Shown one piece after another: positions 710-6,661 of a stretch of DNA of 64,000 nucleotides (the first letter of the stretch is position 1; each line of letters begins with the position of its first letter). Source of the DNA: a phage. The stretch is from sequence record PZ583743.1; one strand, 5' to 3'. The translations under genes were made by a program, and so were the position numbers. The notes below the pieces were generated by a model, which was not told the origin of the DNA, did not search any database, and saw only the letters and a program-made list of their open reading frames with translations.

Positions 710-2974
710 TCATAATTTACAGGATGAACAATCTTCAGCTTTTGGAGTTTCTATTTCATAATCATCAGTACCAGAACCGTCACGTGTATTATGATAATAG
801 AAATTTTTTCCGCCAAAATACCAAAAGTACAAAAGGTCATCAATCATTACAGACATTGGAACCTTTCCTTTTGGAAAAATCTGCGGGTCATAATATGTAT
901 TCGCTGAAGCTGATTGACATACCCATTTCAGCATAATAGCTACCTGCGTAAGATAAGGTTTATTACCTTTCTTAGCTAATTTCCACGTATAATCATAGAG
1001 GTCTATGTTATGCTCAATATTGGGCACGACTTGATTAAAGGAACCCTCTTTTGATTCTTTAACAGAGACTGGTCCGCGTGGAGGCTCGATACCGTTTGTA
1101 CTGTTAGAAACTTGGGAAGATGACTCACATGGCATAAGTGCTGATAATGTGCTATTACGGATGCCAAAGAGCTTAAGGTCTTCCCGCAGCGACGACCAGT
1201 CACAAACGTATTTTGGAGCTGCGATTTGGTCAATCTTTTTATTGTACCAGTCGATAGGTAATTCGCCTCGAGACCAACGAGTGTCTGAATAATACTCGCA
1301 AGGTCCTTTTTCTTTGGCGAGCTTAATGGATGCTTTAATGAGTCCATACTGTAATCTCTCAAATAGTTCATGTGTTAAATCGTTAGCATCTTCATAAGAA
1401 GCAAAGTTACTTGCTAGCCAAGCTGCATAGTTAGTAACACCTACACCAAGATTTCGACGCTTTTTAGCTTTTTCTGCTTCAGGAACTGGATATCCTTGGT
1501 AATCCAAAAGATTATCAAGAGCGCGAACTTGAACTTCTGCTAATTCATTAATTTTATCTTGGTCTTGCCAATCGAAGTTATCCAACACAAATGCAGATAA
1601 CGTGCACAATCCAATTTCGGCATCAGGGCTATTCACATCATTTGTTGGAATAGCAATTTCACAGCACAAGTTACTCTGACGAATAGGTGCCTTTTCACGA
1701 ATAAACGGAGTATAGTTATTCGTATTATCAATGAACTGTACATAAATCCTTGCTGTTCCTGATCGTTCAGTCATGAGCAATTCAAACAGTTCACGGGCTT
1801 TAATACGCTTTTTACGAATATTAGGGTCTTTTTCTGCGGCTTCGTATAATTCGCGGAAACGGTCTTGGTCTTTAAAATAAGAATAATAAAGTTCGCCACC
1901 CATTTCATGCGGACTAAACAAAGTAATGTAATCGTTCTTTCCGAATCGTTCCATCATCAAATCATTCAGCTGGACGCCATAATCCATATGACGAATACGG
2001 TTTTCTTCTACGCCTTTGTTATTTTTCAAAACGAGAAGATTTTCAACTTCCAAATGCCAAATAGGATAATAAGCAGTAGCAGCGCCGCCACGAATTCCGC
2101 CTTGTGAACATGATTTAACAGCAGTCTGAAAATGTTTCCAAAAAGGAATAACGCCAGTATGACGCACTTCACCTGTGCCAATCTTAGAACCTTCGGCACG
2201 AATCATACCAACATTAATGCCGATTCCAGCTCGTTTAGAAATATACTCAACAATTGAAGCAGAAGCCTTATTGATAGACTTCAGCGAATCACCTGCTTCA
2301 ATAACAACGCATGAACTAAACTGTCGAGTTGGAGTACGACATCCAGCCATAATAGGAGTTGGCAGTGAAATCTGTCGAGTAGATACTGCTTCATAAAAAC
2401 GAATAACATGTTTTAATCTGTCAACAGGTTCATCTTGATGCAATGCCATTCCAATAGTCATAAATGCAAACTGTGGAGTTTCATAAATTTGACCAGTGGT
2501 TTTATCTTTAACGAGATATTTTTCTTTTAATTGCATCGCCCCGGAATAAGTAAATTCCATATCCCGCTCGTGCTTAATTTTTGATTCTAAAAATGTAATT
2601 TCTTCTGCAGAATATTTTGACAACAATTCAGGGTCGTATTTACCTTCATTTACACAGTAAGAAATATGGTCAATAAATGAACGGGGCTCATACTGCCCGT
2701 AAACATGTTTACGAAGAGCAAACATTAAACAGCGCGCAGCTACATATTGATAATCAGGCTCTTCAACTGAAATAGAATTCGCAGCAGCCTTAATTACAAT
2801 GGTTTGAATGTCATCAGTGGTCATTCCATCACGGAGATATGATTTAATATTTTCATATAATTCATAAGGATCTACAGATGTTCCTTCAGCTGCCCAAGAT
2901 AAAACTTTAATAATTTTTTGCGGGTCAAAGCTTTGAGAAACACCACTACTTTTGATAACATTAATTAATTGCAT
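710..2974 (-). CDS. nrdA: Ribonucleotide reductase large subunit NrdA
   Basis: 754 aa, same length as T4 NrdA; class Ia RNR sequence ending CSSCKL; between td and nrdB. Confidence 0.95.
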   Translation of the reverse strand: MQLINVIKSSGVSQSFDPQKIIKVLSWAAEGTSVDPYELYENIKSYLRDGMTTDDIQTIVIKAAANSISVEEPDYQYVAARCLMFALRKHVYGQYEPRSFIDHISYCVNEGKYDPELLSKYSAEEITFLESKIKHERDMEFTYSGAMQLKEKYLVKDKTTGQIYETPQFAFMTIGMALHQDEPVDRLKHVIRFYEAVSTRQISLPTPIMAGCRTPTRQFSSCVVIEAGDSLKSINKASASIVEYISKRAGIGINVGMIRAEGSKIGTGEVRHTGVIPFWKHFQTAVKSCSQGGIRGGAATAYYPIWHLEVENLLVLKNNKGVEENRIRHMDYGVQLNDLMMERFGKNDYITLFSPHEMGGELYYSYFKDQDRFRELYEAAEKDPNIRKKRIKARELFELLMTERSGTARIYVQFIDNTNNYTPFIREKAPIRQSNLCCEIAIPTNDVNSPDAEIGLCTLSAFVLDNFDWQDQDKINELAEVQVRALDNLLDYQGYPVPEAEKAKKRRNLGVGVTNYAAWLASNFASYEDANDLTHELFERLQYGLIKASIKLAKEKGPCEYYSDTRWSRGELPIDWYNKKIDQIAAPKYVCDWSSLREDLKLFGIRNSTLSALMPCESSSQVSNSTNGIEPPRGPVSVKESKEGSFNQVVPNIEHNIDLYDYTWKLAKKGNKPYLTQVAIMLKWVCQSASANTYYDPQIFPKGKVPMSVMIDDLLYFWYFGGKNFYYHNTRDGSGTDDYEIETPKAEDCSSCKL

Positions 2975-3291
2975 AAGTCCTCAACTTGAAAATCGTCTTT
3001 AAACAATCGGTTAACTATATGAGCTATTATATCACCATGACACGGCTTTGGTTTACATGTGCATCCTAGCCTCATTCCACGTAAAGGCTCTAAATGTGCT
3101 TTAGTTATTTCTCCGGATTTAATTCGACGTATAAAATCTTTTTTGAATAATTCAATGGCAGCCTCCCGGCTGCCAGCATCTTTACCGACGTAATTTCCCC
3201 AAAATGTACCACGGTGAATATTAACATCAAAGTCGGATTTATATTTATTCACTACTTGGCATAGACGGCCCGCGCGGTGATAATTCGTCAT
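2965..3291 (-). CDS. Conserved hypothetical protein (T4 nrdA.1 position), Cys-rich [11 protein letters not shown] motif
   Basis: 108-aa ORF between td and nrdA. Confidence 0.6.
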
Positions 3292-3508
3292 ATTGTTTTT
3301 CCGTTAAAACAGTAATATCATAATAACAATCTGAAGAAGTTTTAACCGTAGAAATTTTATTATCAAAATACTCACGAGTCATTTTATGAGTATAATATTT
3401 TTTGCCATAAATTATAATAGGCTGATTTGGTCCTGGAACTTCTAACTCGCTTGGGTTAGGAAGTGTAAAAAGAACTACACCAGAAGTATCTTTAAATCGT
3501 AAAATCAT
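3245..3508 (-). CDS. Hypothetical protein (T4 nrdA.2 position)
   Basis: 87-aa ORF; overlaps next ORF start by 47 nt in another frame. Confidence 0.5.
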
Positions 3509-3531
3509 ATATCCTCACAATTAATAATTAA

Positions 3532-4392
3532 TTACACCGCCATTTTTCCTTTAATAGGAGGGTGAGATACATAGTTGTTAAGAACAAAATTATGCGGCTT
3601 TGCGAATTGACTCAACCAAAATACCTGTGATTCTGTGTCCCATTCATCAAATTCATCTGGAAATTTTAATTGTAATTCGCATAAATCCATAGGTTCACGA
3701 CGCAAAATTTCTTTACATTGTTCTATGTGATTCATATAGATATGAGTATTACCACCAGAAAATATCAAATCTCCTGGAATAAGATTACACATCTTAGCTA
3801 CAATATGAACTAATGCAGCATATGATGCAATGTTGAATGGCAAGCCCAAGAACACGTCAACACTTCTTTGATACCACTGCAAATCCAAATAGCCATTACG
3901 CACATTAAACTGATAGAACATATGACAAGGCGGTAATGCCATTTGCTTGAGTTCAGCTGGATTCCATGCTGAAACAATTTGACGTCTATCATTTGGCAGT
4001 TTTTTAATACGATCAACAACTTCTATAATTTGGTCTACACCGCCAAAATCACGCCATTGTTTTCCATAAATTGGACCAAGTTCACCGCTATGATATCCTA
4101 AATCTTTTGCTTGATTTTCGTAATTTTCATCCCAGACTGTTTTGCCTTGAATTAATGAATCATGCTGAATTAATCGTAAATCATTTACGTTAGTACTTCC
4201 TGATAAAAACCATATTAGCTCAGCAATGCAAGCTTTCCAGGCGAGCTTCTTAGTTGTTACTGCAGGAAAACCTTTACTTAAATCCCAGCGTAATTTAGTA
4301 CCGAACAGAGCAATTGTTCCTGTGCCTGTTCGGTCATCAGTTTCATAGCCATTTTCAAAAATGTCTTTAATTAAATCTTGGTATTGTTTCAT
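3532..4392 (-). CDS. td: Thymidylate synthase, uninterrupted (no group I intron)
   Basis: 286 aa continuous ORF with ThyA motifs (LPPCH, FNIASYA); T4 Td is 286 aa. Confidence 0.95.
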   Translation of the reverse strand: MKQYQDLIKDIFENGYETDDRTGTGTIALFGTKLRWDLSKGFPAVTTKKLAWKACIAELIWFLSGSTNVNDLRLIQHDSLIQGKTVWDENYENQAKDLGYHSGELGPIYGKQWRDFGGVDQIIEVVDRIKKLPNDRRQIVSAWNPAELKQMALPPCHMFYQFNVRNGYLDLQWYQRSVDVFLGLPFNIASYAALVHIVAKMCNLIPGDLIFSGGNTHIYMNHIEQCKEILRREPMDLCELQLKFPDEFDEWDTESQVFWLSQFAKPHNFVLNNYVSHPPIKGKMAV

Positions 4393-4437
4393 TTAGTACC
4401 TTATATAAATTATAATACATTTTATGAAGCTAAATAA

Positions 4438-4785
4438 TCAATACGGTTTAGCGTCAAATTTTCTTTCAATTTCAGGCGTAAAATACAATTCTTTACCACG
4501 CTTGGAAAAGCGACCAATAATATGATAATTATTCTCATCAAACGTGATATTGCCGATATCCATAGCTTTCAACCAAATATCGATATTTCTGTCAAGCTTT
4601 ATATCAAAATTCCAATACGGAGAACTATTACCGAAAATACTACAAGCGGATTCAGTGAAACAACTGCTATAAATCTTGTCTTTAGGAACTACTAATTGAT
4701 AGACGCCTTTAATAAACTGAGGACCCTGCCATTTTGGTTGTTTCACGTCTTTTTCTAATAGAATAGGGTAATAATTAAAATTCAT
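4438..4785 (-). CDS. Hypothetical protein encoded in a frd-td insertion
   Basis: ORF track 4438..4797 (119 aa, GTG start); likely ATG start at 4785 giving 115 aa; no recognisable motif. Confidence 0.5.
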   Translation of the reverse strand: MNFNYYPILLEKDVKQPKWQGPQFIKGVYQLVVPKDKIYSSCFTESACSIFGNSSPYWNFDIKLDRNIDIWLKAMDIGNITFDENNYHIIGRFSKRGKELYFTPEIERKFDAKPY

Positions 4786-4805
4786 ATTTTCCGCCACGTG
4801 TTATT

Positions 4806-5632
<827 letters not shown>

Positions 5633-5640
5633 TTTATCTC

Positions 5641-5976
5641 CTAATATAAAGGATCGGGAACATATCCACTAGCTTTAATCATTTTAACTAAGGTTACCAT
5701 TCCTTTGTTAACTGCTTGTGAGATTTCATCAAAAACTTCATCACTAAAAAGTTCTAACACTCCCTTCTGAACTTTTAATTTACAACCAACAATTTCGTCA
5801 TCGCCTATAGTAAATTCATTACCGCCAATTCCACCGAAAAACTTAATTACCCCAGTTAACTGTCTTCCACGAGAATATGGGTCATGTGATAAAGTAATAT
5901 GAGTCACCCCAGGTACAGTTTTAAATTGACAGCGAATGTTTACTTGGGAAATTCCAGTTACATGAATGTCAGACAT
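5641..5976 (-). CDS. Hypothetical protein (frd-upstream cluster)
   Basis: 111-aa ORF. Confidence 0.5.
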   Translation of the reverse strand: MSDIHVTGISQVNIRCQFKTVPGVTHITLSHDPYSRGRQLTGVIKFFGGIGGNEFTIGDDEIVGCKLKVQKGVLELFSDEVFDEISQAVNKGMVTLVKMIKASGYVPDPLY

Positions 5977-5986
5977 AATATTTTCC

Positions 5987-6229
5987 TCAAACAGACTTTT
6001 TCACAGTTTTCCAATCAGCTTTAAACTGATCAACATCAGAATGGTAAATCCAGAATCCTGCGCTTTCTCCATCCTCATAAAGAGGGCATCCATCACATTC
6101 ATCTTCCCATCCCATATCACGTAAAAGATGTTCAGCTTTTTCAACGAGTTCAGAATCTTTACCGATGATATTAAAATACCATTTACCTCTAACTTCTGAA
6201 TCTTTGATGCTCTGGCGTTGTAATCTCAT
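5987..6229 (-). CDS. Hypothetical protein (frd-upstream cluster)
   Basis: 80-aa ORF with AAGGAG SD and its own early promoter at 6255..6284. Confidence 0.55.
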   Translation of the reverse strand: MRLQRQSIKDSEVRGKWYFNIIGKDSELVEKAEHLLRDMGWEDECDGCPLYEDGESAGFWIYHSDVDQFKADWKTVKKSV

Positions 6230-6254
6230 TTTATTCTCCTTAGTTGATAGGGTA

Positions 6255-6284
6255 ATAGTATCACACTACTACCCTTCTGTAAAC
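6255..6284 (-). promoter_or_regulatory. T4-type early promoter (GTTTAC, 18 nt, TACTAT)
   Basis: Minus-strand -35 at 6279..6284 and -10 at 6255..6260; precedes ORF 5987..6229. Confidence 0.55.
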
Positions 6285-6661
6285 TACTTTTTGAAAGTTT
6301 TTCGCAAAAGTTCAATGATTTCATCTACATTGTTTTCGTCAACAATGCAGTGAATTTTTGTTACGCCAGAAACCTTGTCTTCGACTTCATCTTCAGAAGT
6401 CGGTTCTTTATACTCGCAGAAACAATGAAATTCGTCTTCGCAAATTTCTGAAAGTCTATCACAAAGGTGAAAATGCTTTCCATTAGCGCATTCAATGTGT
6501 TTTACCGCTTTAAATCCATTAGCAAAGAAAACTTCTTTAACTTCAAACCATCCGCCATTTTCTCGAATAATTTTAACTATTGACGCGTTGGATCGTGGGC
6601 TATAATTAATAAATGTATCAATAAGTCTTGGAACAAGTTCATACTTTTTGCCAATATACAT
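6284..6661 (-). CDS. Hypothetical Cys/His-rich protein (frd-upstream cluster)
   Basis: 125-aa ORF; HIECANGKHFHLCDRLSEICEDEFHCFCEY segment suggests metal binding. Confidence 0.5.
   Translation of the reverse strand: MYIGKKYELVPRLIDTFINYSPRSNASIVKIIRENGGWFEVKEVFFANGFKAVKHIECANGKHFHLCDRLSEICEDEFHCFCEYKEPTSEDEVEDKVSGVTKIHCIVDENNVDEIIELLRKTFKK

Follow-up and report, generated by a model that had tools for sequence, protein, structure and literature searches.

In bacteriophage T4, the genes for dihydrofolate reductase (frd) and thymidylate synthase (td) overlap by 4 nt (ATGA) in the reference record (NC_000866), as the initial annotation of the locus described here had stated. The closest described counterpart of the present locus is found in T6, whose record (AY262134.2) names a gene td.1 (protein ABI48938.1), with a 348-nt CDS, between frd and td; in RB51 the same gene is called RB32ORF229c. 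Literature searches for td.1, RB32ORF229c and phrog_1928 turned up no account of the gene: the paper on mobE draws on the T6 record and does not discuss td.1, and a review of T4-related genomes is likewise silent on it.

Two further systems bear comparison with this locus. Protozoa and plants possess a bifunctional DHFR-TS that includes a junction peptide. Arbiol and colleagues reportedly described, in 2010, PeSL ‘mobile regulatory cassettes’, said to be ORF cassettes that are flanked by repeats and lie in plastic parts of T4-type genomes.

The window, the 64,000-nt stretch of phage record PZ583743.1 that was analysed, carries td.1 between frd and td on the minus strand. The overall explanation that we favour, with moderate confidence, is that td.1 is a real and known gene, that it occupies a cassette site with three alleles, that T4 has probably lost it, and that its product may have a binding role. 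In itself the finding is an ordinary one, an already-annotated conserved hypothetical gene. Its interest lies in a protein that is phage-only and strongly conserved, has a confident predicted structure, and is embedded, often with translational coupling, in the DHFR-TS operon of many genera.

Organisation of the frd-td.1-td locus

Relative to T4, the extra DNA amounts to exactly 417 bp, as established by alignment with T4 and T6 and by exact repeat mapping. The initial annotation had placed about 410 bp of extra sequence, holding an ORF of 115-119 aa, between frd (4806) and td (4392), which is correct. Alignment of the junction across T-even genomes (T4, T6) sets this 417-bp unit between two 15-nt repeats, and the features of the locus are collected in Table 1.

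Table 1. Features of the frd/td junction and of related loci. Positions are those of the window, except in the last row, where they are those of the phage or contig named.
Feature	Coordinates	Strand	Description	Source
frd, dihydrofolate reductase	4806-5387	-	193 aa; upstream flank of cassette	ORF list
Direct repeat, left copy TAAATGAAATAACAC	4798-4812	-	9-nt perfect core at 4812-4804; covers frd stop codon	Repeat search, exact 9-mer mapping, T4 alignment
frd-td.1 spacer	4786-4805	-	20 nt; Shine-Dalgarno-like GGCGG at 4795-4791	Read from sequence
td.1 CDS	4438-4785	-	115 aa plus stop TGA at 4440-4438; 13.7 kDa, pI 8.5, PHROG 1928	ORF list, T6 annotation
td.1-td intergenic spacer	4393-4437	-	45 nt; promoter-like element and td Shine-Dalgarno AAGG at 4402-4399; lacking in T4	
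Direct repeat, right copy TAAATGAAACAATAC	4381-4395	-	Covers td start codon	Repeat search, 9-mer mapping, T4 alignment
td, thymidylate synthase	3532-4392	-	286 aa, without intron; downstream flank of cassette	ORF list
Second ORF after Td.1 homologue	S16 gp154 (L005) 2809-3159; L004 6332-6673; L013 3308-3658; L015 3308-3664		Overlaps Td.1 homologue and td	

The longest td.1 frame in the ORF list runs from 4438 to 4797 (minus strand) and gives 119 aa from a GTG codon. Translation more probably begins at the ATG at 4785-4783, which yields 115 aa; GGCGG lies 5 nt ahead of this ATG, and the records of relatives annotate the same start. ORFs on the opposite strand at td.1 are short (30-57 aa). In this genome td.1 overlaps neither neighbour, with gaps of 20 nt on the frd side and 45 nt on the td side. 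At its start the frd-side spacer holds a vestigial mini-frame, ATG AAA TAA, which shares sequence with the frd stop. This spacer is conserved in ime09, T6, Lutter and PST. Phage SF lacks it, and there the frd stop is overlapped by the ATG of td.1.

Both flanking genes show variation of their own. Upstream, two further small ORFs lie between frd and frd.1, at 5387-5632 (minus strand, 81 aa, phrog_3183) and 5641-5976 (minus strand, 111 aa, phrog_3566); the corresponding gap in T4 is only 72 bp, and ime09 has the 81-aa ORF without the 111-aa ORF, so that the frd-frd.1 interval is another variable slot beside the frd/td junction. Downstream, td is mosaic in this genome: Shigella phage CT01 alone matches it over its full length (99.9%), and the Td protein is only 83% identical to that of ime09, although frd and td.1 are 97-98% identical to their ime09 counterparts. 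Many records match td only from query base 159 or 314 onward, from which the 3' part of td, especially 3532-3845, is read as a divergent allele.

td.1 as a conserved protein-coding gene

The ORF at 4438-4785 is a real protein-coding gene, the td.1 of the T-even frd-td operon, and was already annotated as such. Its protein matches the PHROG 1928 profile with E=1.6e-35, residues 8-115 aligning with profile positions 2-125 of 126; the nearly full-length profile match, the size and motifs, and the same-strand position between frd and td all agree with membership of this family, which has no functional label. Run on the window, the family profile recovers the td.1 ORF alone (E=1.8e-39), which rules out a second td.1 paralogue there. 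Among 1.84 billion representative proteins, the family HMM gave 22 matches, 20 of them clusters of 95-116 aa; P0021 and P0023, spurious matches to long eukaryote-like repeat proteins, were excluded from the family. Across the family alignments Q16, W19, G27, G91, K95 and G97 are invariant, and Y29, N79, F93 and F102 are at least 90% conserved. Four motifs are conserved in the family: Q..W, (H/K)G(I/V)Y, GN and IGRFxKxG....F.

Comparison with relatives by the pairwise Nei-Gojobori method gave dN/dS values of 0.01-0.1 for Td.1, with dS reaching 0.8 within the genus: 0.011 against T6 and Lutter (dS 0.33), 0.05 against F2 and SF (dS 0.67-0.78), and 0.10 against a metagenomic homologue at 63% identity. 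For frd, the values in the same pairs are higher (0.14-0.28). The DNA of td.1 is mostly 90-99% identical to that of other records and the protein is at least 99% identical in 218 records, so most differences are synonymous; the Td.1 of this genome is identical (100%) to the RB18 protein and one residue apart from that of T6 (99%). This pattern of codon substitution indicates that td.1 is under strong purifying selection.

Td.1 is a soluble, mildly basic, mostly beta protein, from a family with a median pI of 8.6. An AlphaFold model built from a 33-sequence alignment has a mean pLDDT of 92, a pTM of 0.85, about eight strands and one helix; it was used in place of a model from 4 sequences, which gave a poor pLDDT of 60.

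The view of the initial annotation, that the ORF has no recognisable motif, agrees with the results of the domain searches. Pfam, at E-values up to 10, found no domain in the Td.1 of the window and, across 23 family members, gave just scattered, unrelated single-member matches, with no GIY-YIG, HNH, LAGLIDADG or PD-(D/E)xK domain. Td.1 likewise had no match in NCBIfam, nor in PADLOC, which covers defence proteins and not anti-defence proteins. A sequence search of the PDB, with the single sequence and with a profile, gave at best a dynein at E 0.044, which is not credible. Foldseek comparison of the model with the PDB returned nothing below E 0.7, and thus no significant relative among solved structures, and the structural matches in BFVD were all uncharacterised proteins of T4-type phages (Pectobacterium PM2, Serratia Muldoon, Erwinia Cronus, Aeromonas Ah1 and phiAS5).

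The weak structural matches in the PDB are enriched in OB-fold binders of ssDNA or RNA and are not significant, and no significant superposition of Td.1 on a five-stranded OB barrel was found. On the predicted fold, Td.1 could conceivably be a small OB-fold-like nucleic-acid binder, acting either on ssDNA or RNA or as a translational regulator of the frd-td-nrd mRNAs; we consider this decidedly improbable.

Annotation and distribution

The initial annotation had named one finding that would refute its reading, namely that the ORF is a conserved and annotated gene in most T4-like phages, and the distribution bears this out: td.1 is not novel to this genome, and is known, annotated and widespread. 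Its DNA is found in 367 phage records, including T2, T6, RB3, RB32 and RB68. By tblastn, td.1 was detected in 580 records, out of 1068 that encode a T4-type Frd, and 349 of the 580 have at least 95% protein identity; the figure of 580 is a lower bound, since a single-sequence tblastn probably misses more distant members. This is the distribution of a conserved, annotated gene of most T4-like phages.

The family is confined to T4-type phages and lies nearly always between frd and td. Diverged homologues occupy that position in phages of Klebsiella, Salmonella, Enterobacter, Citrobacter, Erwinia and Edwardsiella, and the position is kept in genera that share only about 47-50% identity in Frd. 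The same-strand arrangement is seen in the window, ime09, T6, F2, SF, PST, S16, Mexia and three metagenomic T4-like contigs (L004, L013 and L015); the exception is a distant family member (P0024) that adjoins neither frd nor td. In Klebsiella phage Mexia the td.1 homologue shares 17 nt with frd and 8 nt with td. Salmonella phage S16 has 4-nt overlaps at all junctions and carries, in addition, a td.1 paralogue. In the three contigs the order is DHFR, Td.1, a second ORF of 113-118 aa, and TS. The second ORF of S16 and L004 is a PHROG 1928 paralogue, about 20% identical, with an hhalign probability of 96%; from their size and position alone, we infer that the second ORFs of L013 and L015 are also td.1 paralogues.

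The names given to td.1 homologues are inconsistent, and include ‘putative homing endonuclease’, ‘putative glucose-1-phosphate adenylyltransferase’, ‘putative dihydrofolate reductase’ and ‘reductase’. Such discordant labels occur in MZ501113, MZ501047, MZ501067, PQ571308, MN580668, MW749000 and PP526941, and the domain searches support none of them. The dihydrofolate reductase label was rejected: td.1 has no DHFR_1 domain (PF00186), and the real frd is the neighbouring gene.

A link between td.1 and the intron of td was also considered. In T4, T6 and PST, td is interrupted by a group I intron with I-TevI. Of these phages T6 and PST also carry td.1 and T4 does not, and in this genome and ime09 td.1 accompanies an intronless td; on these grounds the link was rejected.

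Three alleles at the frd/td junction

Phages differ in what lies between frd and td, and three alleles make this position a small cassette site. The suggestion in the initial annotation that it is a site for accessory genes was sound, the junction being variable. Among Tequatrovirus-like records, about 365 carry td.1; about 138 carry an unrelated 68-aa ORF (phrog_9550), whose start overlaps the frd stop (ATGA) and whose stop overlaps the td start (TAATG); and the fused T4-type junction (ATGA), the rarest of the three, is found in 32. Taken together, these counts roughly equal the 538 records with matching flanks. The fused junction was counted with a 50-bp T4-junction probe at a tightened E-value, each half of the probe extending through the repeat. 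Its carriers are the T4 isolates, RB55, RB59, vB_EcoM_112, HY03, SG1, G28, F1, FN, JEP6, FL12, FL18 and G2133; the fused arrangement recurs in more diverged phages, JK45 among them.

The 68-aa allele is exemplified by Yersinia phage PYps10T (L007, 791-997), in which it fills the slot that corresponds to 4393-4805 of the window. Its protein is strongly basic and unrelated in sequence to Td.1, and one record labels it DUF4858. Records of Klebsiella and Serratia phages contain more distant copies of this ORF, with identities of 60-80%.

The repeats that bracket the 417-bp unit are imperfect direct repeats of 15 nt, identical at 13 of 15 positions (87%), with a 9-nt perfect core and a spacing of 417. 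The ATGA overlap of frd and td in T4 corresponds to exactly one copy, the right copy, of this repeat. The alleles are related by recombination at short repeats, which arise where the frd stop meets the start codon of the gene that follows (TAAATGAA...).

Such a repeat-bounded unit might be taken for part or remnant of a mobile element, either a free-standing homing endonuclease that has degenerated or an insert of transposon type that duplicated its target site. Some BASEL-collection records do label td.1 a ‘putative homing endonuclease’; free-standing endonuclease genes of T-even phages do sit between conserved genes, as with the nearby mobE and segG; and the 417-bp unit is bounded by direct repeats of 9-15 nt. 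The direct repeat, however, is for the most part dictated by the stop codon of frd and the start codon of td. Near the ends of the unit lies a weak inverted repeat of 18 nt, complementary at 14 of 18 positions; as the best terminal inverted repeat it is marginal, was picked after the fact and is matched by 3.5% of shuffles, and transposon-like ends were rejected. The unit holds no transposase, td.1 being its sole ORF; a protein of 115 aa is too small for an endonuclease; neither the 23 family members in Pfam (GIY-YIG, HNH, LAGLIDADG or any other domain) nor NCBIfam, nor any structural match of Td.1 to a nuclease, supports such an activity; and purifying selection over the whole protein argues against a decaying remnant. 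A mobile-element origin of this kind is scarcely credible.

Direction of change

The initial annotation had regarded the extra DNA as an insertion in this genome relative to T4, a polarity that is probably reversed. T4 and its closest relatives have probably lost td.1, by deletion between the 15-nt repeats. The change is read as a deletion in T4, and not as an insertion in this genome, because the fused junction occurs in 32 records only and because the frd of T4 is nested among those of td.1-bearers: in a neighbour-joining tree of frd, T4 (fused junction) and PYps10T (68-aa cassette) nest among PST, the window and ime09, all of which bear td.1, and the td.1-bearing F2 branches outside this group. 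The repeats alone are neutral as to the polarity of gain or loss.

The gene has also moved in other lineages. SF and JK45 differ by td.1 and yet have frd and td genes that are 98.1% and 95.8% identical; the td.1 of SF is 97.4% identical to that of F2, whereas the frd genes of these two phages are only 64.7% identical. Near-identical flanks in SF and JK45, together with an F2-like td.1 in SF, indicate that td.1 moved as a discrete cassette between unrelated flanks. SF is classed as a Mosigvirus (L011) and JK45 as a Tequatrovirus (L008), F2 being the L010 entry, an instance of fine-scale mosaicism across genus labels.

After the frd stop of the present genome, ATGAAATAACAC resembles the td start ATGAAACAATAC at 10 of 12 positions. 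This sequence (ATG AAA TAA CAC) has the look of a decayed td start, which makes an older insertion into a fused junction plausible as well, and both gain and loss of td.1 have probably happened.

Loss of td.1 from T4 would account for the lack of any study of the gene in the model phage. T4 has the rarest of the three alleles (32 of about 535 Tequatrovirus-like records), and if the loss that we consider probable did take place, the textbook overlap of frd and td is a derived state; td.1 itself, present in most relatives of T4 and absent from the model phage, is unstudied.

Expression signals

The spacer between td.1 and td contains a promoter-like element, made up of TTGATT (4441-4436) or the MotA-box-like AGCTTCA (4431-4425), followed by TATAAT (4414-4409). 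A promoter scan scored 4441-4412 at 9 of 12 matches, which is a consensus match only, and in the Lutter record the corresponding position is annotated as a promoter. Conservation of the element extends to ime09, T6, Lutter and PST; F2 and SF lack it. No terminator-like stem-loops were found within 3400-6400.

A putative sigma-70 promoter also lies inside frd, at 5035-5008 (minus strand), about 220 nt upstream of td.1; it reads TTGACC-16 nt-TATAAT and matches at 11 of 12 positions, and the T4 equivalent is a weaker match (TTGATC...TGTAAT).

An Rfam search gave no credible match. Its sole hit, a fly lncRNA at E 0.11, falls below threshold, and a hidden RNA gene was rejected.

Proposed role of Td.1

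Our tentative proposal is that Td.1 may serve the folate/thymidylate branch of phage dNTP synthesis, as a binding partner or modulator; its basis is gene neighbourhood and translational coupling. A role in this branch is suggested by the conserved position of td.1 across genera, by stop codons that overlap the next start, and by the strength of purifying selection. Under this proposal Td.1 would be a non-enzymatic binding protein, without a catalytic motif; it would be translated from the same mRNA as Frd and Td; its action, as accessory partner or modulator, would be on Frd, Td or the equivalent host enzymes; and it would be dispensable in laboratory hosts. T4, the RB69-like phages and the roughly 138 Tequatroviruses with the other cassette do without td.1, which is thus not needed for Frd or Td activity. 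These phages count against the proposal, as do the distant P0024, which lies apart from frd and td, and the gaps that separate td.1 from its neighbours in this genome.

Alternatively, Td.1 could be a host-takeover or anti-defence protein unrelated to nucleotide metabolism, for which the frd/td junction would be merely a permissive slot in an early or middle operon, open to the entry and exit of small cassettes. The presence/absence polymorphism of td.1, with an unrelated alternative cassette in the same slot, would fit such a protein, as would the exchange of the cassette between otherwise near-identical flanks, the tandem td.1 paralogues of some genera, the dispensability of td.1 in T4, and the nature of the family as a phage-only orphan without a known fold. 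A dN/dS of 0.01-0.1, however, with 349 of 580 records at 95% identity or above, is unusual for arms-race genes, and the position between frd and td is fixed across genera in which Frd has diverged to about 47-50% identity. The lack of a PADLOC match also counts against a takeover or anti-defence function, though PADLOC covers defence, not anti-defence, proteins. We regard that function as somewhat unlikely, and retain the modulator of the folate/thymidylate branch as our working proposal.

Comparison with known systems

The closest known system is the td.1 of T6, which is the same gene: it has a 348-nt CDS, a 99% identical protein and the same place between frd and td, and differs by one residue and in nothing of substance. 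The T4 junction has the same flanking genes, and its sequence corresponds to one copy of the 15-nt repeat found around td.1 here; it differs in lacking the 417-bp unit, and with it td.1, the Shine-Dalgarno spacer and the promoter-like td.1-td spacer. The phrog_9550 cassette shares the frd/td slot with td.1, but belongs to another PHROG and encodes a protein that is 68 aa long, strongly basic and unrelated in sequence.

The likeness to the PeSL cassettes is one of behaviour, a small ORF being gained or lost as a unit via short flanking repeats in otherwise collinear genomes. The repeats themselves are different, those of PeSL being a promoter-plus-stem-loop of about 50 nt and those of td.1 coding-junction sequences of 9-15 nt, and whereas PeSL cassettes lie in hyperplastic regions, td.1 is inside a core metabolic operon. 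Identity with a PeSL-type cassette was rejected on the grounds of the 9-15-nt stop/start repeats, the lack of a terminator-like stem-loop, and a promoter-like element on one side only.

With the bifunctional DHFR-TS the comparison is an analogy only: in both cases a polypeptide is encoded between the DHFR and TS frames and made with both, but Td.1 is a separate protein and not a linker, and T4 works without it. A stronger form of the comparison, which we consider improbable, would make Td.1 a new-fold subunit that physically links or regulates the phage DHFR and TS, tuning dihydrofolate channelling or thymidylate output in the dNTP-synthetase complex. Were it true, Td.1 would be the non-covalent counterpart of the protozoal DHFR-TS fusion, missed for decades through its deletion from T4.
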